64,000 nucleotides of DNA from Candidatus Aenigmatarchaeota archaeon. Its GTDB lineage: Archaea > Aenigmatarchaeota > Aenigmatarchaeia > CG10238-14 > SpSt-28. The notes beneath the pieces are model-generated. The model did no database searches. It was given only the letters and a program-made list of their open reading frames with translations, and was not told the DNA's origin. Both the position numbers and the translations under genes were made by a program. Location: NCBI GenBank assembly GCA_038733315.1, contig JAVYPJ010000001.1:146770-210769 (forward strand), written 5' to 3'. Positions 5,321 through 62,791 of this stretch are shown here, piece by piece (the first letter of the stretch is position 1; the number at the start of each line of letters is the position of its first letter).

Positions 5321-6223
5321 TTAACAAAATACTTGAGTAATATAAATTTTGCCATCGCTAGTTATAAAAACTCCTATTCCTTCATCTCTCCAATGCTCAA
5401 ATAAAATATTTTTTCTATGTCCCTCACTATTATACCAACCATTAGTAACTTCCTTAGCAAATTCTTCTAAGCTATAGAATTCGTATGAAATTATTTTTCC
5501 CGAAAATTTATCATAACTATAGCTTTTATAAATATATCCTAAAAACAAGTTTTCAGCTCCTTCATAAACATAGTTTCCAGCTAAAATTTTACACTCATAA
5601 CTAAACTTCTCAAACCTATCTGCTAAATTTTCTCCATCAATACTAATATGGTCAAAATAATTCCTTTCTGCCATATCTTTACTATGATATCTAGCTATTT
5701 CTCTCAGTTTTTCATTAAACTTTAAAATGCTTAAGTTATGCTCTGCTCTTATTTTATTTACATATTCATGAATTTTTAATTCTAAGAATTCGACACTTTG
5801 ATTAAATTCTTTCAATTTCTCATAAAAAATTTCTTCGGTTGTCTCATACCTTTGGTAAACTAACGGATTAGATAATAAATTTTTAATTTTAATTTCTCCC
5901 TTAGAAACCTTTTCAGAAAAACCATCTATACCCAAAACAAAATCTAATTTTTTAAAATTTTCGTAAGAGGAAAAAAAATAAGTAAAAAGTATTATAAAGA
6001 CTAAAAATAGAAAGTTTTTTATAGGTAAAAACTCTTTTAACCTTTCTTCAAAAAAAATCCAAGATATATAAATTATAGAAAAAATAGTAGATCTTAAAAA
6101 TATTTTAAAATAATCAATAGAATCTATAAAAAAACTTAAAATCAATAAAAATGAGAAAACTATAAAGAAAATTTTAAAAAAACTATAGATTATTTTTTTA
6201 CTTGCCTCTATGTTTTTTTCCAT
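5321..6223 (-). CDS. membrane-anchored CAP/SCP domain protein
   Basis: N-terminal TM helices; VNKIRAEH, HSKDMAERNYFDH, GAENL, WYNSEGHRKNIL. Confidence 0.88.
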   Translation of the reverse strand: MEKNIEASKKIIYSFFKIFFIVFSFLLILSFFIDSIDYFKIFLRSTIFSIIYISWIFFEERLKEFLPIKNFLFLVFIILFTYFFSSYENFKKLDFVLGIDGFSEKVSKGEIKIKNLLSNPLVYQRYETTEEIFYEKLKEFNQSVEFLELKIHEYVNKIRAEHNLSILKFNEKLREIARYHSKDMAERNYFDHISIDGENLADRFEKFSYECKILAGNYVYEGAENLFLGYIYKSYSYDKFSGKIISYEFYSLEEFAKEVTNGWYNSEGHRKNILFEHWRDEGIGVFITSDGKIYITQVFC

Positions 6224-27957: not shown

Positions 27958-29007
27958 ATGAAAATTTTATTAGTATCGCCAGAATTTTTAATAAAAGAAA
28001 CTAAGGGTTTAGCGAGATATGGCTATGAAATATATTCGAGAATTAATAAAATTTACGATGTAGAGGTTGTATTTAGAAAAAAATTTCATATGGGTTTTTT
28101 AGGGTTTGTTTTTTCCCTTTTATATTCAAATATTTTAGTTTTAATAAAAGGAAGGAAATTTAATGTAATACATGCACTATCTCCTGAATTGGCTATATTA
28201 GCAGCAATATTTTATAGAAAGAAGCTTGTTGTTACTTTCCATGACCTCTTTCCTATAATATATTGGAAAAAATTAAGATATAAGATTGGTATTTTAACGT
28301 CTTTTCTTTCATTTATAGTTTGGAAAATTGCGTCAAGAGCTAAAATAATAGTAGCTGTTTCTTCATTAACCAAGCAGCAAATCGAAAAAAAACTGAAAAG
28401 AACGAATGTAAGAATAATATTAGAGGGTATAGATGAAAAAATAAAGCAGAAAAAACCTAAAAATAAATATTTGACACTATGTTTTGTAGGAGGGTATTCC
28501 TATAGAAAAAGAGTTGATATAGCAATAAAATTATTTGAAATTATTAGAAAAAAAGAAAAGGATTGCAAACTAATAATCGTTGGTGGAAGAAAAAAATCTA
28601 TATATGAATCAAACTTTTCTGTACCGAAGGATTTAAATAAAGATATAATTTTTTTAGAGAAAGCAAGCGATGAAAAATTAATAGATGTTTATAGTGAATC
28701 TCACTTTATAATAATATCTTCTGTAGTAGAAGGTTTTTGCTTACCTATTATAGAAGCTTTAAAGTGTAACACTATACCTATTACCTTTGAATTTTCTGAA
28801 ATACCGAAAGAAACTAAAGAATTATGTATAGTATGTAAAGATGTTAGAGATGCTTGTGAAAAAATCATAGACTTTTGGAAAAATAATTATAAAATGTGGC
28901 AATTTTTAAAGAAAGTTAATAAAAAAATTAAAAAATTTGATTGGAATAAAACCGTTAAAGAGTATATTAAGTTATATAAAGAAATTGCCAATTATGGGGA
29001 AAGTTGA
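27958..29007 (+). CDS. GT4 family glycosyltransferase
   Basis: TFHDL, SSVVEGFCLPIIEA (EX7E), FDWNKT. Confidence 0.9.
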   Translation: MKILLVSPEFLIKETKGLARYGYEIYSRINKIYDVEVVFRKKFHMGFLGFVFSLLYSNILVLIKGRKFNVIHALSPELAILAAIFYRKKLVVTFHDLFPIIYWKKLRYKIGILTSFLSFIVWKIASRAKIIVAVSSLTKQQIEKKLKRTNVRIILEGIDEKIKQKKPKNKYLTLCFVGGYSYRKRVDIAIKLFEIIRKKEKDCKLIIVGGRKKSIYESNFSVPKDLNKDIIFLEKASDEKLIDVYSESHFIIISSVVEGFCLPIIEALKCNTIPITFEFSEIPKETKELCIVCKDVRDACEKIIDFWKNNYKMWQFLKKVNKKIKKFDWNKTVKEYIKLYKEIANYGES

Positions 29008-29995
29008 AGATATTATAAGAGTTATAAAGGAAAAATTTAAAGTTAGTGAAGAAAAAGTAAAAGAAGAAATTAAACAAAAACTTTATGAATTTAGCGGATT
29101 AATTAGTGAAGAGGGTGCAGCAATTTTGGTTGCAAGAGAATATGGAATAGATATAAAAGAGTTAAAATTCTTTACACCATTAAACGAATTGATTGGTGGG
29201 ATGAAAAATGTAAATGTTAGAGTAAAAGTTATTAAAATTTTTCCATTGAAAGAATTTGATAGAAGAGACGGTACAAAAGGTGTCATAAAGATTTTATTGG
29301 TTAGCGACGGTACAGATTTTGCTAGATTAGTTTTTTGGGATGAATTTGCAAAAGAAGCTGAAGAAATGAAAATAAAAATTGGAGATGTGTTAAAAGTTTA
29401 TAACATTAAAACAAGTGAAAATATTTTTGGTGAAATAGATATAGTTATAGATAAAAACAGTAATATAGAATTTGATAGCCAAGATAATTTACCGAGCTTA
29501 GATGAATTGAATGAAAAATTTGTAAAAAATAAGTATAAAAGATTAGATGGAAATTTAGATTCAATAGGTTTTTTTGAAGTGATTGGAATTATTACATATT
29601 TATTTGGTAATAACTTTTTCTTTAAAGTATGTCCAATATGTAATAGCAAGGTTGGAAAGAAAGATGAAAAATATTTTTGTGATATACATGGTGAAATTGA
29701 ACCAAAAAATGCGCTTTTCTTAAGATTTGAATTAAACAATTTTTCTGGAAATTTAAGAGTTGTTTCGTTTAAGGAAACTGCAGAAAAACTTATTGAAATA
29801 GATAAAAGAGATTTAGAAAAAATTGAAAACTTAAAGGAATTTTTATCAAAAATGTTAATAGGTAAAATGATTAAAGTAAGGGGAAGAGCTAGAAAGAATA
29901 AAATATTAAATATAATAGAATTGATTGCTAACGAAATAGATGTTGTTGATTTAAAAGATGAAACTATGTTATTAATTAAAAACTTTGAAAGTTAA
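28994..29995 (+). CDS. rpa: replication protein A (OB folds plus zinc finger)
   Basis: [25 protein letters not shown] fold, CPIC...CDIHG; start at MGKVED. Confidence 0.85.
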
Positions 29996-29997
29996 TT

Positions 29998-30954
29998 ATG
30001 GAAGAAGAAAAAATTTCTCTAAAAGATATTAAAGGAATTGGTCCTAAAACTCTCAAGAAATTAGAAGAGTTAAAAATAAATGATCCTATGATAATTGCTA
30101 CAAGTAATCCAAAAGAATTATCTATGATATTAGAAATAAGTGAAGAAAAAGCGTTAGAAATTATAAATAATGTGAGAGAAGCCTTGGGTTTTAAAGTTGA
30201 AACTGCTGATAAGGTTTTAGAGAGAAGGATGAAAATGAAAAAAATAACTACATCTTCTAAAAAATTAGATGAACTCTTAGGTGGCGGAATTCCAACGCAA
30301 GCTATAACAGAAGCTTTCGGTATGTATGGTAGTGGTAAGACTCAATTAGCTTTCCAGTTAGCTATTAATGTACAATTACCTGAAAGTGATGGTGGGTTAG
30401 AAAAAACCTGTTTGTTTATAGATAGTGAGGGTACTTTTAGTCCGGAAAGAATTCTCGAAATAGCAAAAAACAGAGGATTAGATGCTGAAAAAGTATTAAA
30501 AAATATTTATGTTGCAAGAGCTTATAGCAGCGATCATCAAGTTTTATTAATAGAAAAATCTGTTGATTTAATCAAAGAAAAAAACATTGGACTTATTGTA
30601 ATTGATTCTATAACATCTCATTTTAGAGTTGATTATATGGGTAGAGGGGAATTAGCTGAGAGACAACAAAAATTAAATAAACACTTACACCAACTACAAA
30701 GATTAGCAGATGCATTCAATTTAGCAGTATATATAACTAATCAGGTAATGGCAAGGCCAGATATAATTTTTGGTGATCCAACTCAACCTGTTGGTGGCCA
30801 TGTTTTAGCACACATTTCTTTTTATCGACTATATCTTAGAAAATCTAAGCAAAACCTAAGAATTGCCAGATTAGTAGATGCTCCTAATTTACCTGAAAGA
30901 GAAGTTGTATTCCAAATAACAGAAAGAGGTTTGGAAGATTATGAAGAAAAATGA
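29998..30954 (+). CDS. radA: DNA repair and recombination protein RadA
   Basis: HhH N-domain, GMYGSGKTQ Walker [17 protein letters not shown]. Confidence 0.97.
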
Positions 30955-31559
30955 TTATATATAGGGGAGCGGAAGCAGTTATTAGGAAAATTAATGAAAA
31001 TGAAATAATAAAAGAGAGAATAGAAAAAAAGTATAGAATAAAAGAACTTGATATTAAAATAAGAAAAGAAAGAAATAAAAGAGAAGCTAAAATATTAATA
31101 GAATGTAAAAGAATTGGTATAAATGTTCCTAGAGTTTTAGAAATAAATGACTTTTCTATGAAAATGGAATACATCAATGGAAAAAGATTAAAAGATGTTA
31201 TAAACAACAAAAATTATAAAGAATTTGCTACTGAAATAGGGAAAATTGTTTCAATACTACATTCGAATAATATAGTTCATAATGATTTAACTCTATCAAA
31301 TCTCCTACTCTATGATAATAAAATTTATCTAATCGATTTTGGTTTGTCATATAACACAAATAAGATAGAAAAAAAAGCTGAAGATATTTTAACTCTTTAT
31401 TATTCAGCAAAATTCATAATAGGAGAAAAATTTGAAGAATTTTTTAAAATGTTTGTTGATGTCTATACTAAAAACTATTCTGAAGGTGGTAAAGTTATAG
31501 AAAGGATGAAAAAAATACTATCAAGAGGTAGGTATTCTTTGAAAAACAATGGCAACTAA
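30951..31559 (+). CDS. bud32: KEOPS kinase Bud32
   Basis: [32 protein letters not shown]. Confidence 0.92.
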
Positions 31560-31821
31560 AAAAGATTTATTAAATTTTTTATTCAAAGAAAAACCTTTAA
31601 AAGTTCTTTTAGTACTATCAGATGGTCTTCCTAAAAATATAACACAAATCTACAAAAAAGTTAGAACAACATACTCACATACACTAAACATATTAAGTGT
31701 TATGTATGATTTGAACATAATAGAGTTTGAAAAAAGAGGTAGAGATAAAGTTGTGAGATTAACAAAAAAAGGTGAAAAGATTGTTGAAGCATTAAAATCC
31801 ATATTATCAGATTTTCTATGA
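31549..31821 (+). CDS. small winged-helix DNA-binding protein
   Basis: KPLKVLL...NITQI...TYSHT...KRGRDKVVRLTKKG. Confidence 0.85.
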   Translation: MATKKDLLNFLFKEKPLKVLLVLSDGLPKNITQIYKKVRTTYSHTLNILSVMYDLNIIEFEKRGRDKVVRLTKKGEKIVEALKSILSDFL

Positions 31822-31915
31822 ATTTTTAGATATTTTTTATGAATATTCTTACATTTTTTATGAATATTCGCAAAATTTTTATGAATTTTCAGAATTTTTT
31901 TATGAAAAATCAGAG
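31811..31915 (+). repeat. five tandem 21-bp iteron-like direct repeats
   Basis: Core TTTTTATGAA with ATGAA at 31818, 31839, 31860, 31881, 31902; consensus ATTTTTTATGAATWTTC. Confidence 0.9.
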
Positions 31916-32203
31916 AATTTTTGAAAAGTTTCGGAAGTTATTTTGTATAAATGTTTTATAAAATCGTAACTTTCTTATTTAAAACATTGAGATAAGAAAG
32001 TTAGAGTTTGTGTTTTATTGTTATGTGTCTATTTCATAAACATATAGTAACAACTCTTTTATAACATTGTTATAATAAAAATTAATAAAAATGTTTTTAT
32101 TATTAATGTGTTTATATAAAGAGTGTAAAAAATAATAAATATTACTCTTCATATAATTAAACGAACTTAAATAAGAATCTTCATAAAAAATATAATTTAT
32201 GAA
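31811..32203. other. candidate replication origin or regulatory region
   Basis: Longest non-coding gap seen in the window; iterons, inverted copies, palindromes and an AT-rich stretch, surrounded by replication genes. Confidence 0.5.
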
Positions 32204-32471
32204 AAGAGGAAGACCATCTAAAAGGTTTGAAATATATGAATTGATTAATGAGTATTTTAAAGAGAATCCTTATCCATCGAATGTTAATAAAATAGCTGAA
32301 TTTATATTTCAGAAAAGTAATAAAAAAATCAGTTGGAATACATTAAAAAAATATTTGGAAGAATTAGTAAAGATAGATAGAATTAAAAGAATAATACCAC
32401 CTCATTCGAAAGATAGTTCCAAAACCGGTATAACCCTATATTATTTAGAAGTAAAAAAAGAAAATGAATAG
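32199..32471 (+). CDS. small winged-helix protein with N-terminal KRGRP motif
   Basis: MKRGRPS, NVNKIAEFI...ISWNTLKKYLEEL, wing ending GITLYY. Confidence 0.8.
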   Translation: MKRGRPSKRFEIYELINEYFKENPYPSNVNKIAEFIFQKSNKKISWNTLKKYLEELVKIDRIKRIIPPHSKDSSKTGITLYYLEVKKENE

Positions 32472-33441
32472 ATCCTTAGAATTGATTAAAAAGGGATATT
32501 TAATTCAAGATAAAAATCTTTCAGATTTGTTATCAAAAATTAGTGACGAAGATTTTAAAAAAATATTAGATGTTTTACCAAAAACAACAGAACCAAAAGT
32601 TTTGAAAAAAGAAGATATTTTAAGATTGATGGGTAAGAATTATAACATAAAAATACTAACTCCAAAAGGTAAAGAAAAAATAACAATTACCGATGTTATT
32701 AACATAATGAAATCGAGATTCGACTTTTTTTTACCTATTTTAAAGAAAAAATTATCTTTCTTTAATTTATTATCAATTAATAAGATTTCAAAAAAATATA
32801 GAGTTTTTTCGATAATAGGAATTGTTTATAAAATTTACGATAATAAAATAACGTTAGAAGATATGACAGGAAAAGTAGAAGTTGTTGTTGAGGATAAAAA
32901 TCTACTAAAATACATCGAAGAAGACTGTGTAATTGGAGCTAAATGTTATTGGAATAATAATGTAATAATAGCTAATGAAATTATTTTCCCAGAATATGAG
33001 AATAACCAAGAAAAGGAGATAAACTTAGAGAAAATAAATATATTTTTCGAAAGTAGTAATTTTAAACTCGATGAAATTTTTGACATATCTATAGTTTTTT
33101 GTAATGAAGAGAATAAAATTTTAAATAATGTAGTCTATTTAAATAATAGAACTCCAATACATAGAATTCTTGTTAATGAATGTCTAATTCTTTTTATAAA
33201 CGAAAATTTTATAAAATTTGATTTTGAAAAGTTTTATAAACTCAGATTAATAAAGTCTAGTATTAATCAAACAATAAAATTTGGAGCGGATTTATTTCTA
33301 ATCCAAGAAAAACCTAACATTATATTTTTATATAACTCTAACTTAAATAAGATAGAAGAAAGAAATAAAATCGTTTTAATTAATATAAAGAACAACCAAT
33401 CAAAAATTTGTATTGATTTAAAAAATAGAGAGTTTTGTTGA
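32464..33441 (+). CDS. inactivated PolD small subunit (DP1) / polymerase B-subunit homolog
   Basis: SRFDFFLPILK, OB fold IIGIV...LEDMTG...DCVIG...IIFPE, C-terminal DLFLIQEKPNII; phosphoesterase SDxH/GD/GNH/HxH motifs absent. Confidence 0.75.
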   Translation: MNRSLELIKKGYLIQDKNLSDLLSKISDEDFKKILDVLPKTTEPKVLKKEDILRLMGKNYNIKILTPKGKEKITITDVINIMKSRFDFFLPILKKKLSFFNLLSINKISKKYRVFSIIGIVYKIYDNKITLEDMTGKVEVVVEDKNLLKYIEEDCVIGAKCYWNNNVIIANEIIFPEYENNQEKEINLEKINIFFESSNFKLDEIFDISIVFCNEENKILNNVVYLNNRTPIHRILVNECLILFINENFIKFDFEKFYKLRLIKSSINQTIKFGADLFLIQEKPNIIFLYNSNLNKIEERNKIVLINIKNNQSKICIDLKNREFC

Positions 33442-33508
33442 GTGTACCTATATTTATATCCTCATTTATAGAAAAACATATAACTATACTAAAATTAAAA
33501 TAAAATTC

Positions 33509-36226
33509 ATGAGCACTGAAAGATTTTTTTTAATAGACGTTGATTATGATGTTATCGACGATAAACCATTAATAAGGATTTATGGAAAAACAAAAGATAA
33601 TAAATCAATAACAGTTTTTTATAGAGATTTTTTTCCATATTTTTATGTTAAAACGAAAGATTTAGAAAAAACAATTGATTTTATAGATAAAAATTTTAAA
33701 AATTTAATTGTTAAAGTGGAAATAGTTAATAAATATTTACCTATAGGTTTTAAAAACAAAAAAGACGAACTTTTAAAAATATATTTAAAGCATCCGGCTA
33801 AGGTACCTATCGTTAGAGATCAGCTAATGAGCTTAGAATTTATAGAGGGAATTTTTGAAGCTGATATACTTTTTAAGTATAGGTTTATGGCAGATTTTGG
33901 TCTTTATGGTTGTAAGTGGTATGAAGCTGAAGGAGTTTATGTTAATAATACATCTACTGTTTTCACAGATTTAAAGTTCGAGGCGAAAATTTTTAAAGAA
34001 GTAGAAGATATAACTAATCCAAAATTTAAGATATTATCAATAGATATTGAAGTGGCTAATGACATCGGCATGCCAAACCCGAAAAACCATCCAATATCTA
34101 TAATTTCTTTAAGTTTTTTCCCAGAGTTTAAAGATAAGAAAAGTCTTGTTTTACTTTCCAAAAAAATTATAAATAAAGAAAATTTAGATATTTTGTGTTT
34201 CGAAAATGAAGAAGAAATGCTAAAAAAATTTGTGGATATTGTTAAGGAATATAATCCAGATTTTATTATAGGTTATAACATCAACAATTTTGATATACCT
34301 TATATAATCGAAAGATTAAAAATAAACAACATCAAACCATATCTTGGTAGAGTTAAAAAGAGTTGTAAAAGTATAAAACTTAATGAGGGAAAATATAAAA
34401 ACACAATTACTGGAAGAGTAATAGTAGATTTTTATGAGATATTTAAGGAATTTTCAAAAAAAGGAATGTTTAAAACAAAAAGATTGGGTTTAGGTGATGT
34501 CGCAAGTGCTTTAATTGGAAAAACGAAAGAGGATGTTGATCATAGTGAAATTAAAAAGCTTTGGGATGGGGATATTGATGATATTTTAAGATTAGTTAAG
34601 TATGCGAAAAAAGATGCTGAGCTTGTTTTAGAAATTATGTTAAGTAGAGATTTCCTCTCTCAATACATAGAAATTTCTAGATTGAGTGGTTTATTACTTC
34701 AAGATTCCTTAGCTGGCTCAGAATCTTCAAGAATAGAACAGTTTCTATTAATAGAATTTAATAAAAACGATTTTGTAATTCCGAATAAACCAACTAAAAA
34801 AGAGCTCAAAGAGAGGGAAAAAGAAAGGGTTAAGGGTGCTATTGTTTTAGAGCCAAAAACTGGCTTGCATGAATATGTTATTTATTTGGATTTTAAATCG
34901 CTATACCCAAGTTTAATAATTCAGTATAATATATGTCCAACAACATACGTTAGGAAAAAAGAGGAATTAGATGAAGAAATAGAATTAATTCAATCGCCAA
35001 TAAACACCTTTTTTGTTTCAAAAAATGTAAGGGAAGGAATTTTTCCAAGAGTTTTAAAAAGATTAATAGATGAAAGAGATATGATTAAAAAATTAATGAA
35101 AAACGAAAAGGATGAGGTTAGAAAAAAACTTTTAGATGCAAAACAATTAGCTCTAAAAAGTCTAGCAAATTCTTTTTATGGATATACAGGATATCTTAGG
35201 GCAAGATTTTTTATTGCTGATATTGCTAATACAATAACTGCTTATGGTAGATATTGGATAACTAATGTTAAAAAACTTATAGAAAGCGTTGGTTATGAGG
35301 TTGTTTATGGCGATACAGATTCAGTTATGATTAAGGTTAATGTGAATTCGATGGAAGAGGCATTTAAAAAAGGATTGGAAATAGAAAAATTTATCAATTC
35401 TAACACTCCTGAAAATATAAAAATGAAGTTAGAAGGTATAATGAAAAAGATATTATTAATAACAAAAAAGAAATATTTCGGATATTTGTTTGAGAGTAAT
35501 AATGACAGCGGAAAAATCCTTATGAAAGGTGTAGAAACAGTAAGAAGGGATTGGTGTGATTTGGTTTCTGAGACTTTGAGTAAAGTAATTGAAATACTTT
35601 TAATTACAGGTGATGAAAGGAAAGCTTTTGATTATGTTAGGGAAATATTTAGAAAGTTAAAAAATAATGAAATAGATCCACAAAAACTAGCTATAGTAAA
35701 ATCAATCTCAAGACCTATTGAAAAATATAAAGGGCAACAACCACACATAGAATTAATAAAGAAAATGAGAAAAAGAAATGAGCCTAATATACCTGGTGTT
35801 GGTGATAGGGTAAGTTATGTAATAGTTTCCGGGCCACAAAAAATTGTTGAAAGAGCAGAGAGTGTTGATTATGTTAAAAAACATAAAATACCAATAGATG
35901 CAGAATACTATATACATCATCAATTATTACCACCCTTAGAAAGAATTTTTGAAGTGATAGGTATATCTTCTTCACAGTTTATTACTGGAAGTAAACAGAT
36001 ATCTATTCTATCCATTATACAGAATGGAAATGGTAATGGAAAGAAAGATTATAGTGAAAAGATTCCAAATAATGAAATAAGAATCGAAGAGCTTGAAGGT
36101 TTTATATGTAACAGTTGTTCAACTATATACAGAAGAGTACCATTAAATGGTTTTTGTGAAATATGTAATGGTGAAATAGTATTTTATTCACAAACATTAA
36201 AAACAAAAATATTATCTATAACATAG
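33509..36226 (+). CDS. polB: family B DNA polymerase with C-terminal DP2-like zinc finger
   Basis: ExoI DIE, ExoII YNINNFD, DFKSLYPS, KSLANSFYG, YGDTDS; tail CNSCSTIYRRVPLNGFCEICNG. Confidence 0.96.
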   Translation: MSTERFFLIDVDYDVIDDKPLIRIYGKTKDNKSITVFYRDFFPYFYVKTKDLEKTIDFIDKNFKNLIVKVEIVNKYLPIGFKNKKDELLKIYLKHPAKVPIVRDQLMSLEFIEGIFEADILFKYRFMADFGLYGCKWYEAEGVYVNNTSTVFTDLKFEAKIFKEVEDITNPKFKILSIDIEVANDIGMPNPKNHPISIISLSFFPEFKDKKSLVLLSKKIINKENLDILCFENEEEMLKKFVDIVKEYNPDFIIGYNINNFDIPYIIERLKINNIKPYLGRVKKSCKSIKLNEGKYKNTITGRVIVDFYEIFKEFSKKGMFKTKRLGLGDVASALIGKTKEDVDHSEIKKLWDGDIDDILRLVKYAKKDAELVLEIMLSRDFLSQYIEISRLSGLLLQDSLAGSESSRIEQFLLIEFNKNDFVIPNKPTKKELKEREKERVKGAIVLEPKTGLHEYVIYLDFKSLYPSLIIQYNICPTTYVRKKEELDEEIELIQSPINTFFVSKNVREGIFPRVLKRLIDERDMIKKLMKNEKDEVRKKLLDAKQLALKSLANSFYGYTGYLRARFFIADIANTITAYGRYWITNVKKLIESVGYEVVYGDTDSVMIKVNVNSMEEAFKKGLEIEKFINSNTPENIKMKLEGIMKKILLITKKKYFGYLFESNNDSGKILMKGVETVRRDWCDLVSETLSKVIEILLITGDERKAFDYVREIFRKLKNNEIDPQKLAIVKSISRPIEKYKGQQPHIELIKKMRKRNEPNIPGVGDRVSYVIVSGPQKIVERAESVDYVKKHKIPIDAEYYIHHQLLPPLERIFEVIGISSSQFITGSKQISILSIIQNGNGNGKKDYSEKIPNNEIRIEELEGFICNSCSTIYRRVPLNGFCEICNGEIVFYSQTLKTKILSIT

Positions 36227-60882: not shown

Positions 60883-62127
60883 ATGGGTTTTGCTAAAATA
60901 ATAATAGGAGATAGTAGAAGGATGGTAGAATTAGAGGACAGTTCTATAGATTTAGTTGTTACTTCCCCACCATATTGGCATATTAAAGATTATGGTGTAG
61001 AAGGACAAATAGGTTATGGTCAGTCTTTGCACGAGTACCTTAAGAGTTTATATTTAGTTTGGAAAGAATGTTTCAGAGTTTTGAAGCCCGGATCTAGGTT
61101 ATGTATAAATATAGGAGACCAATTTTTGAGAAGTATAGTCTATGGAAAATATAAAGTAGTACCGCTTCATTCTGAGTTTATAGTACAGTGTGAAAAAATA
61201 GGGTTTGATTATATGGGTTCTATAATTTGGCAAAAGAAGACAACCATGAATACTACAGGTGGGGCTAACGTTATGGGATCTTATCCTTATCCGCCGAATG
61301 GTCTTATAGAGATAGATTACGAGTTTATTCTTATTTTTAAAAAACCTGGAAAAAAGATAGCTCCTTCTGAGGAGATAAAAGAGAAATCGAAACTTAGTAA
61401 AGAGGAGTGGAAAGAGTATTTTTCTGGACATTGGTATTTTCCTGGAGAAAGACAAATAGGCCATGAAGCTATGTTTCCGGAAGAACTGCCTAAGCGTTTA
61501 ATTAAGATGTTTACCTTTATTGGCGATATAGTTTTAGATCCGTTCCTCGGAAGCGGAACCACGATTAGGGCAGCTTTAAACTTGAATAGAAACGGCATAG
61601 GTTATGAAATAAACGAAAACTTTTTACCGATAATAAAGAAAAAAATAGGTCTAGGGGAAAGTTTACTTACCATAGATAAAAAGATAGAAATAATTAAAAG
61701 AGAGAGGCCAATTGAAATAGAAGAGAGTATAGAATACGTTCCGAATATAAAAGACGCTAAACCTAAGGTCAATCCAAAACTATTTAGATTTGAAAATGAT
61801 AGATTGTACAAGGTCACAAAAATTTTAAGTGAAGATACAATAGAGTTAGATACCGGATTAATAGTGAAACTATTAGGTTTAAAAATATTAAGGAAGGAAG
61901 AGGCTAGAAGCTATCTTGAGAATTTTGTAAAAGGAAAGTATGTTTTTCTCAAGTTCGATCCTTTATATAAACCAGATGATAAAACTGTACAGGCATATGT
62001 TTTTCTGAAAAATAAAATTTTTATAAATAAAGAAATGATTAAAAAAGGGTTAGCTAAGGTGGAAGACCGTAATTTTTTATATAAGGAAAAGTTTTTGAGT
62101 ATAATTCAAAATAGTAAAAATGGGTAA
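60883..62127 (+). CDS. beta-class N4C/N6A DNA methyltransferase with C-terminal SNase-like domain
   Basis: VTSPPY catalytic motif, HEAMFP, VLDPFLGSGTT; C-terminal KVTKILSEDTI...LLG...AYVF...INKEMIKKGLA. Confidence 0.9.
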   Translation: MGFAKIIIGDSRRMVELEDSSIDLVVTSPPYWHIKDYGVEGQIGYGQSLHEYLKSLYLVWKECFRVLKPGSRLCINIGDQFLRSIVYGKYKVVPLHSEFIVQCEKIGFDYMGSIIWQKKTTMNTTGGANVMGSYPYPPNGLIEIDYEFILIFKKPGKKIAPSEEIKEKSKLSKEEWKEYFSGHWYFPGERQIGHEAMFPEELPKRLIKMFTFIGDIVLDPFLGSGTTIRAALNLNRNGIGYEINENFLPIIKKKIGLGESLLTIDKKIEIIKRERPIEIEESIEYVPNIKDAKPKVNPKLFRFENDRLYKVTKILSEDTIELDTGLIVKLLGLKILRKEEARSYLENFVKGKYVFLKFDPLYKPDDKTVQAYVFLKNKIFINKEMIKKGLAKVEDRNFLYKEKFLSIIQNSKNG

Positions 62128-62791
62128 AGAATGGATATTGAATATAGCGAATAGTAGGTGGGGATTAACTAAGAAAAATAAGGTAGGTCCTGTTGCTGCT
62201 TGGATAAGAGAGTGCAGCCCAAAAGACATTTCTGAGTGGGAAAGATTCTATTTAGAAAAGTTAGAACAGTTTTTAAAAAATAAAGGCATTAGTTTAAAGC
62301 CAGAAGAATATTTACAAACCCTGGGGAAAACACTCTATACAAAGATAAGCGAAGTAATGATGGTAGAAATATCTAATGTTAGTGAAGATGATTGTATTGA
62401 TTATATAAGAAACCTAGTAATTAACAGGACATACGAGGGTTATTTAACTGAAAAAGAAACAGTATATGAACAGCTCAAGGAAAAATTGGGAGTAGAAATT
62501 GTACCAGCTTCTGACGAAATAGATAGGTTGTATAATGTTGATTTTTTGATAAAAGTTAAAGAAAAGTTGATAGGACTACAAATAAAACCAGTTACGTTTG
62601 AGCATGCGCCGGAGTATGCTATTAAATGGAGAGAAGTATATAAAAGTTCACACGAGAAATTTACTAAGAGGTTTGGTGGAAGAGTTTTTATGATATTATC
62701 AGTTAAGAAGGGTAATAGAAAGGTTATCTATAATCAGGATGTAATAGAGGAGATAAGGAAAGAAATTAAGAGACTAAGTTCAAGCGGATAA
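62120..62791 (+). CDS. type II restriction endonuclease, MjaI-like family
   Basis: EWERFY, INRTYEG, ASDEIDRLYNVDF, GLQIKP; overlaps the MTase stop. Confidence 0.75.
   Translation: MGKEWILNIANSRWGLTKKNKVGPVAAWIRECSPKDISEWERFYLEKLEQFLKNKGISLKPEEYLQTLGKTLYTKISEVMMVEISNVSEDDCIDYIRNLVINRTYEGYLTEKETVYEQLKEKLGVEIVPASDEIDRLYNVDFLIKVKEKLIGLQIKPVTFEHAPEYAIKWREVYKSSHEKFTKRFGGRVFMILSVKKGNRKVIYNQDVIEEIRKEIKRLSSSG

Follow-up and report, generated by a model that had tools for sequence, protein, structure and literature searches.

PolD, with the two-barrel DP2 as its catalytic subunit and DP1 as its small subunit, serves many archaea as their essential replicase. Most Aenigmarchaeota lack DP2, as noted by Kazlauskas et al. 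(2020, NAR, PMC7544198), who described a group of family-B DNA polymerases (PolBs) from this phylum, "B6-aenigma1", and a set of inactive DP1s, their Aenigma group; they proposed that this PolB replaced DP2, mirroring the origin of the eukaryotic replicases. A later study (Nat Ecol Evol 2025, PMC12680538) reported that, among archaeal lineages, only Aenigmatarchaeota and Baldrarchaeia lack DP2 while keeping DP1, and presented AlphaFold3 and yeast two-hybrid evidence that in both lineages DP1 binds the PolB bearing a C-terminal domain (CTD), not the CTD-less PolBs. In PolD, the Zn-III loop of DP2 with R1131/R1132 sits in an acidic groove of DP1 between the OB fold and the phosphoesterase (PDE) domain (Raia 2019, PMC6355029), and the same paper cites a Zn-III peptide of 20 amino acids (aa) that suffices for nanomolar DP1 binding in Pyrococcus horikoshii. 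We analysed a stretch of 64,000 nucleotides (the window; positions 146,770 to 210,769 of contig JAVYPJ010000001.1, assembly GCA_038733315.1) from Candidatus Aenigmatarchaeota archaeon, in which a gene for a DP1-like protein is followed by a gene for a PolB with a C-terminal zinc finger (Table 1).

The two genes are likely to encode a PolB/B-subunit heterodimer of a type typical of Aenigmatarchaeota, in which the DP1-like protein would be the adaptor and which would replace PolD. The homologies of both proteins, the dead active site of the smaller one, the missing match to DP2 in the genome, the co-occurrence of both genes across the phylum and their linkage carry this reading. A first-pass annotation of the window, made from the sequence alone, had placed both open reading frames (ORFs) at exactly these positions and had proposed the heterodimer; the proposal is supported by the homologies, by the missing DP2 and by the published yeast two-hybrid interaction for an Aenigmatarchaeota pair (PMC12680538). 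The locus agrees with B6-aenigma1 (PMC7544198) in phylum, in a PolB with one C-terminal Cys4 module nearest to the zinc motif of DP2 (according to profiles and fold), in the lack of DP2 (not found in a genome rated 94% complete) and in an inactivated DP1. Nothing essential differs, and the locus is an instance of that group. The architecture is already published with first interaction data, and the locus represents that described system in a typical form. The annotation had allowed that the architecture may not be wholly new, which was right given the description in PMC7544198, and the novelty had been over-rated; its remark that no biochemical characterisation was known is out of date, as the yeast two-hybrid interaction has been reported (PMC12680538). 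In a full-text literature search, which did not cover all journals, no enzymological work on the Aenigmatarchaeota polymerase turned up. The main texts of PMC7544198 and PMC12680538 contain no mention of the adjacency of the two genes, and the latter points to a FigShare file of gene neighbourhoods. Details added here are the halved PDE fold, the finger-only CTD, a phylum-wide linkage of the two genes that is often found behind Orc1/Cdc6, an upstream array of 21-bp repeats, and a split within the phylum, in which one PolD-retaining family (f11) has a DP2 Zn-III 43–48% identical to the PolB finger.

With PolD of Pyrococcus abyssi (6HMS/6T8H), the pair shares the domain order of the small subunit (N-domain, OB fold, PDE fold) and the docking finger pattern C-x2-C-x3-[YF]RR-x-PL-x-G-x-C-x2-C, in which R875, R876 and P878 of PolB align with R1131, R1132 and P1134 of P. 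abyssi DP2. Unlike in PolD, the catalytic subunit is a PolB and not the two-barrel DP2, the clamp-1 helical bundle and the C-terminal PCNA-interacting protein (PIP) motif of DP2 are absent, and the small subunit has no nuclease site. The eukaryotic polymerases delta, alpha and epsilon resemble the pair in that their catalytic subunit is a PolB with a metal-binding module at its C-terminus and their B subunit, derived from DP1, is nuclease-dead. Eukaryotic CTDs contain both CysA and CysB, in contrast to the one Cys4 module without a helical bundle found here, and the PDE domain of the DP1-like protein is much smaller than that of the eukaryotic B subunits (aligned targets of 410–573 residues). 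We know of no third or fourth subunit of the Aenigmatarchaeota polymerase. The PolB3-DP2CTD and DP1 of Baldrarchaeia (PMC12680538) share with the pair a fusion of PolB to a DP2 CTD, the lack of DP2, the retention of DP1 and a yeast two-hybrid interaction. According to that study, their CTD is full-length and eukaryote-like, whereas the Aenigmatarchaeota CTD is shorter and "degenerate"; the shortness agrees with the finger-only tail observed here. With its PolB, docking finger and dead DP1-derived B subunit, the module illustrates in an archaeon how the subunits of eukaryotic replicases are organised, and it features for that reason in current debates on how Pol alpha, delta and epsilon arose.

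The Cys4 finger of PolB, CNSCSTIYRRVPLNGFCEIC, spans residues 867–886 (window 36107–36166), with C867, C870, C883 and C886 as ligands, and it follows a linker as the first-pass annotation had described. All four cysteines are invariant in 38 PolB homologues. The DP2 model NF011302 matched 31 of the 38 family members and NF003103 matched 29. When 39 tails were compared by hhalign with five DP2 C-termini from family f11, the probability was 98.4% (E 4.1e-15, 42 columns, 43% identity), so that the profile check of the tail against the DP2 CTD suggested in the annotation came out in its favour. The tail alone, searched with phmmer against 177,635 distinct PDB sequences, gave three hits at E ≤ 10, all of them DP2, and matched residues 1114–1148 of 6hms_B with an E of 6.7e-4. 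A profile of 20 tails matched DP2 in the PDB with an E of 8.4e-8; the next matches, the zinc lids of adenylate kinases, were a thousand-fold weaker (8.5e-5). Since the cysteines are invariant in 38 homologues and the PDB hits of the tail are confined to DP2, the resemblance is more than chance, and on these sequence comparisons the finger of the PolB tail is homologous to DP2 Zn-III. The tail model showed a zinc ribbon with block pLDDT values of 86–93, and strands appeared only after residue 858. In a Foldseek search with this model, DP2 was the best match (E 5.7e-3, 36 columns) and occupied ranks 1–3 and 5.

The part transferred from DP2 comprises the finger together with the strand that follows; the tail contains neither the helical bundle nor the terminal PIP motif of DP2. 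PolB ends 19 residues past the last cysteine, and the DP2s of family f11 run about 41 residues further, ending in QFSLSSF. A second, CysA-like metal site was not found, the whole PolB containing a single C-x2-C...C-x2-C module. Of the DP2 CTD named in the annotation, the Zn-III module is present, and both the helical bundle and a second metal site of the kind found in eukaryotic CTDs are lacking. A finger kept without the helical bundle, beside a B subunit with a halved PDE domain, points to a minimal interface.

The DP1-like protein was matched by the NCBIfam DP1 model NF003120 at residues 74–191, the OB region, with an E of 1.3e-8. In Pfam, only a tRNA_anti-codon OB match was obtained (residues 117–192, E 1.8e-4, below the cut-off), and the PF04042 model (DNA_pol_E_B) did not match the protein by sequence. 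In 125 aligned sequences, D133 of the OB fold is invariant and E132, T135 and G136 are nearly so. Aligned with canonical DP1s, the protein has kept its N-terminal domain, its OB fold and the final portion of the PDE domain, and the PDE remnant of about 140 aa has roughly half the size of the canonical domain (about 290 aa). The stretch with phosphoesterase motifs I–IV is deleted or absent, and the position of motif V (GHTH) reads YNSN. None of the five phosphoesterase metal motifs (DxH, GD, GNH[D/E], H, GHxH) was found in the alignment with canonical DP1s, and the 325 residues contain a single histidine (H233), which makes a binuclear metal site impossible. The annotation had read the gene as lacking every phosphoesterase ligand, and it does. 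To judge from the alignment, the protein is an inactive, B-subunit-like member of the DP1 family.

A word-indexed search recovered 16 homologues of the DP1-like protein, of which five were short (324–348 aa; P0001 is the window's own cluster) and were followed by canonical DP1s at E values of 1e-14 and weaker. The exhaustive search returned 179 representatives at E ≤ 0.001, mostly of 290–400 aa. By a crude regular-expression count, 113 of 141 short proteins (<450 aa; 139 representatives plus P0002 and P0005) lacked all of three PDE motifs. A profile built from the 125 sequences matched DP1 and eukaryotic B subunits in the PDB with an E of 9e-44, a value inflated by the five canonical DP1s in that profile; as a control, a profile of the five short Aenigmatarchaeota sequences alone matched only DP1 chains, mainly in the OB region (best E 1.4e-8).

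The AlphaFold2 (AF2) model of the DP1-like protein, computed with the 125 sequences, had a pLDDT of 94.2, with strands within residues 190–318. In Foldseek, ranks 1–48 were all DP1 or eukaryotic B subunits. With VIA-align, the model aligned to P. abyssi DP1 (6hmf_A) with a Z of 17.6 over 265 residues (root-mean-square deviation 4.1 Å), and to the B subunits of Pol delta, zeta, alpha and epsilon with Z values of 15–17 (p50/Pol31, 16.5–17; p70 and p59/Dpb2 of Pol alpha and epsilon, about 15). DP1 or B subunits made up all of the top 42 VIA entries; below them came OB-only structures, which aligned to residues 98–177 with a Z of about 10.8. The alignment extended through residue 325 of the model, up to residues 611–613 of the DP1 chain. 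The structure has the architecture of the DP1/B-subunit family, an OB fold followed by a calcineurin-like phosphoesterase fold. Profiles and fold both came out for the match of the upstream ORF to DP1 and B subunits that the annotation had offered as a check.

The PolB gene starts 67 nt after the end of the DP1-like ORF, and both are on the + strand. Pfam matches were DNA_pol_B (PF00136, E 1.9e-118) and the exonuclease domain (exo1, PF03104, E 2e-37). The exonuclease and polymerase motifs that the annotation had called intact were all located, and their catalytic residues are invariant in the 38 homologues, as are K550, N554, Y557 and G558 of motif B. Judged by its motifs, the protein is a family-B polymerase equipped for both proofreading and synthesis. 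In a PDB sequence search, the PolBs of Thermococcales (1.8e-116) and human Pol delta (6.9e-108) were found at a similar distance, which does not decide a placement in group B6. The PIP-like motif proposed in the annotation follows the thumb and lies where ordinary archaeal PolBs carry their C-terminal PIP box, which at the equivalent position of the genome's second PolB reads QKSLSHFF; Q830 is invariant in the 38 homologues. Compared with the canonical Q-x-x-[LIM]-x-x-[FYW]-[FYW], QISILSII has Q830 and I833, with Ile-Ile in place of the aromatic pair; the homologues also lack aromatics at this position, and the motif appears PIP-like by position only. A short helix was predicted at residues 833–838 with low confidence (block pLDDT about 53). 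The pLDDT of the following linker was below 50 at tail-model residues 31–33 and 37–45 (PolB 838–840 and 844–852), and its length and sequence differ among homologues.

Table 1. Features of the DP1-like/PolB locus. Window positions count from the first nucleotide of the window.
Feature	Window position	Strand	Residues	Evidence
Small winged-helix (wH) protein gene, 90 aa	32199..32471	+		ORF; weak Pfam TBPIP/Hop2 wH match
DP1-like gene, catalytically dead, putative B subunit, 325 aa	32464..33441	+		NF003120, alignment, AF2 model, fold searches
OB fold of the DP1-like protein	32755..32994	+	~98-177	Pfam, structure alignment
PDE remnant of the DP1-like protein, without metal ligands	33019..33438	+	~186-325	Alignment, model
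Family-B DNA polymerase gene, 905 aa, intact 3'-5' exonuclease and polymerase motifs	33509..36226	+		Pfam, NCBIfam, motifs
ExoI IDIE			PolB 178-181	Motif search or reading
ExoII NINNFD			PolB 257-262	Motif search or reading
ExoIII YAKKDA			PolB 365-370	Motif search or reading
Motif A DFKSLYPS			PolB 461-468	Motif search or reading
Motif B KSLANSFYG			PolB 550-558	Read from translation
Motif C YGDTDS			PolB 600-605	Motif search or reading
Degenerate PIP-like motif QISILSII	35996..36019	+	PolB 830-837	Position, Q830 conservation
Low-complexity linker, predicted disordered	36020..36079	+	PolB 838-857	Tail-model pLDDT
Zinc-ribbon module, DP2 Zn-III-derived by profile	36080..36223	+	PolB 858-905	Profiles, tail model, fold

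The genome that contains the window comprises 733 kb in seven contigs. It gave no match to PF03833 (the DP2 N-domain) or PF04042; being 94% complete, it supports the statement that DP2 was not found, its absence being unproven. The annotation had asked whether canonical active DP1 and DP2 are also present, and neither was found. The only matches to NF011302 were the PolB tail and an intein in EF-2; the latter match, on contig C2, had been considered as a divergent DP2 and was rejected. The EF-2 gene with its intein lies outside the window (C2:150017–153688, − strand) in an open frame of 1223 aa. The genome encodes two PolBs. The second, of 818 aa, is encoded on the − strand some 25 kb ahead of the window (C1:118862–121324); its exonuclease and polymerase motifs are all intact, it has no finger, and its C-terminal PIP motif, QKSLSHFF, is canonical.

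In a sample of 151 Aenigmatarchaeota genomes, the short-DP1 profile matched 139 and the PolB tail matched 144. The DP2 N-domain was found in eight, namely all seven genomes of family f11 and G091. In the seven f11 genomes, the tail match lies within DP2 itself (45–48% identity). Family f11 encodes canonical DP1s of 472–494 aa with Metallophos matches, and its PolBs are exclusively tail-less (about 770 aa, 31–33% identity). The two states, DP2 with an active-type DP1 versus a finger-bearing PolB with a dead short DP1, are essentially complementary in the sample. The sole exception is G091, with a DP2 match plus short-DP1 and tail matches on other contigs. Its contig C64 contains the DP2 N-domain in a 622-aa frame and a second DP1-like match, the usual short DP1 is on C11 and the tail match on C30; G091 could be contaminated or could be a genome that holds both systems. 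Such a clean split within one phylum is well suited to studying when and how DP2 was exchanged for PolB.

Linkage of the two genes was counted from the coordinates of the short-DP1 and tail matches; with family f11, the window's own genome and genomes with one listed match set aside, this gave 128 relatives. The genes lie within 6 kb of each other in 116 of these. In 89, PolB comes after the DP1-like gene in the same orientation and at most 6 kb away, and the remaining arrangements were convergent within 6 kb (27), on different contigs (9) or otherwise (3). Among the 11 best DP1-like loci of relatives, PolB is directly downstream in ten, and the eleventh is cut by a contig end. In seven of these 11 loci (L010, L011, L013–L016 and L018), an ORF of 402–421 aa stands directly upstream of the DP1-like gene; two of the seven were scanned with Pfam, and both were confirmed as Orc1/Cdc6 (Cdc6_C, about 1e-29). 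We take the order of Orc1/Cdc6 and DP1-like gene to recall the cdc6-DP1-DP2 order of Pyrococcus. Public source names for the homologues of both genes are Aenigmatarchaeota.

We propose that the 905-aa PolB would synthesise DNA and also proofread it. The zinc ribbon of about 45 residues, a copy of DP2 Zn-III, would be tethered to the C-terminus of PolB by a flexible linker. By analogy with Zn-III of PolD and with CysB/Zn-2 of Pol alpha and epsilon, the basic loop Y-R875-R876-V-P-L would plug into an acidic groove between the OB and PDE parts of the DP1 homologue. This homologue, with its nuclease lost and its PDE domain about halved, would have shrunk to a docking scaffold (OB/PDE) and the N-domain; the PolB exonuclease would make the lost nuclease redundant. 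It may act only as an adaptor (B subunit) that ties the polymerase to other parts of the replisome. A remaining contact with PCNA through the degenerate PIP-like motif is possible.

Several observations weigh against this heterodimer. Part of the canonical interface is missing, as the helical bundle is absent and the PDE domain roughly halved. The hhalign match is limited to columns 47–89 of the last 130 DP2 residues, and the flanking DP2 sequence, including the PDE-contacting helices, consequently has no counterpart in the PolB tail. The RR pair is replaced by SH, ST, QR, TR or KR in some homologues. With the tail model, Foldseek returned nothing at E ≤ 0.001, and generic zinc ribbons ranked closely behind DP2; the fold of the tail alone does not discriminate DP2, and the sequence profiles do. 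The "degenerate" Aenigmatarchaeota CTD is also given a different predicted structure in PMC12680538. Since Zn-III of PolD also contacts the DNA minor groove (PMC6355029), the PolB finger could have a DNA-binding role. Moreover, the genome is only 94% complete, DP2 being not found rather than proven absent, and the second, intact PolB with its canonical C-terminal PIP motif could be the main replicase. If the two proteins worked separately, the zinc ribbon would be a DNA-binding or clamp element, the DP1-like protein a free-standing OB adaptor or single-stranded-DNA binder, and their adjacency a matter of co-regulation. The missing helical bundle, the halved PDE domain, the imperfectly conserved RR pair and the 27 relatives in which the genes are convergent, not in one operon, speak for such a separation. 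We nevertheless consider it very unlikely, given that the Aenigmatarchaeota DP1 interacted in the yeast two-hybrid assay with the CTD-bearing PolB and not with CTD-less PolBs (PMC12680538), and that the 20-aa Zn-III peptide is sufficient for nanomolar DP1 binding (cited in PMC6355029). Short DP1 and finger-bearing PolB also co-occur in most of the sampled genomes, family f11 has neither and keeps DP2 with a canonical DP1, and nearly all relatives counted keep the two genes within 6 kb.

A foreign origin of the pair, whether by contamination of the bin, by mis-assembly or by recent insertion of a mobile element, appears extremely improbable. The B6-aenigma2 PolBs in Aenigmatarchaeota bins are attributed to contamination from Baldrarchaeia (PMC12680538), and a viral provenance has been suggested for the B4 and B6 groups (Kazlauskas 2020, PMC7544198); against these precedents, the two genes lie mid-contig in 397 kb, have a G+C content of 22–28% like that of the window, are flanked by housekeeping genes, and have homologous pairs in conserved order in most of the 151 genomes. 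A heterodimer could also form and serve as an accessory or repair polymerase, with the tail-less 818-aa PolB as the main replicase. This we regard as unlikely, although the second PolB has every motif and a canonical C-terminal QKSLSHFF and the PIP-like motif of the finger-bearing PolB lacks the aromatic pair. The pair is present in sampled genomes without DP2, and the PolD-retaining family f11 is without the pair and has tail-less PolBs only. This complementary distribution fits a pair that fills the role of PolD, an essential replicase in many archaea. The ORF directly upstream of the pair in seven of the 11 loci (Orc1/Cdc6 in the two scanned) also argues against an accessory role, as does the retained N-domain, which in DP1 of Thermococcus binds the Gins51C part of GINS (PMC9023282). 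We therefore keep to the PolD-replacing heterodimer, and we lean towards the finger-bearing PolB, and not the second PolB, as the main polymerase of the fork.

Directly upstream of the DP1-like gene, and overlapping its start by 8 nt, is the gene for the small wH protein, with which the operon may begin. The match of this protein to the TBPIP/Hop2 wH family (E 0.0022) was below the Pfam cut-off. Homologues occupy the same position in four of 12 loci (L007, L008, which is the window's own, L009 and L017), and in L012 a wH match abuts the start of the locus just upstream of the DP1-like gene, where it is cut by the contig end. In this genus and in one other genome, the wH gene occupies the position of Orc1/Cdc6. 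The wH protein was considered as a remnant of the winged helix of Orc1/Cdc6, and this was not supported (no BLASTP alignment, hhalign probability 0.4%). An Orc1/Cdc6-like frame of the genome itself is located at C2:91513–92454; it is divergent (28% identity, 345 aa). A weak Cdc6_C match just beyond the window end was rejected as Orc1/Cdc6, being a MarR/TrmB-like wH protein. An in-situ swap of DP2 for PolB downstream of DP1 was likewise considered; in two f11 loci, DP1 is not beside DP2, PolB or Orc1/Cdc6, and the gene order gives this scenario no support.

In the 377-nt gap between two small winged helix-turn-helix (wHTH) genes, directly upstream of the cluster of wH, DP1-like and PolB genes, a 21-bp tandem repeat is present in 5.3 copies (window 31811–31922; consensus ATTTTTTATGAATATTCAGAA; TRF score 117). 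An inverted copy of the repeat (22 nt, 95% complementary) is located at 32172–32193, just before the wH start, and a hairpin with 17-nt arms at 31967–32003. Two congeners have arrays in the same place with a 21-bp period and a TTTTTATGAA core (6.8 copies in L009, 7.0 in L007). The cumulative GC skew of contig C1 has a broad, flat trough at about 150–175 kb and no sharp turn at the array (178.6 kb), which is weak support for an origin. The array of the window is the only cluster of at least three core copies in the 733-kb assembly. Its repeats could be operators or the iterons of an origin. It is quite unlikely that the locus is the Aenigmatarchaeal counterpart of the oriC-cdc6-DP1-DP2 cluster of Pyrococcus, still attached to a replication origin; if it were, the array would be the origin or initiator-binding DNA, and the wH protein either an origin-binding factor specific to the lineage or a third subunit of the polymerase. 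This reading starts from relatives in the same order, which carry Orc1/Cdc6 immediately before the DP1-like gene, where this genus has the wH gene preceded by the array.

The window is A+T-rich (G+C 22–33% per 2-kb bin), and the polymerase-pair genes are comparable to the remainder. RPA, RadA, ribosomal and other archaeal housekeeping genes flank the pair. Genes for an RPA-like protein (Rep_fac-A_C, OB), RadA (Rad51, E 7e-91) and a Bud32/RIO-type kinase are arranged head to tail at 28937–31559; together with a small wHTH gene they are the genes immediately upstream of the cluster, and with the polymerase genes they form a replication and recombination neighbourhood. Near the other end of the window (60883–62788), a DNA methylase gene (N6_N4_Mtase, 1.4e-49) is followed by that of an MjaI-family restriction endonuclease (8e-43), the two being a type II restriction-modification pair. 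At 5324–6223 (− strand), among ribosomal and RNase P genes, a 300-aa protein is encoded with a domain of the CAP/cysteine-rich secretory protein family (E 5e-14), which seems unusual in a small DPANN-type genome.

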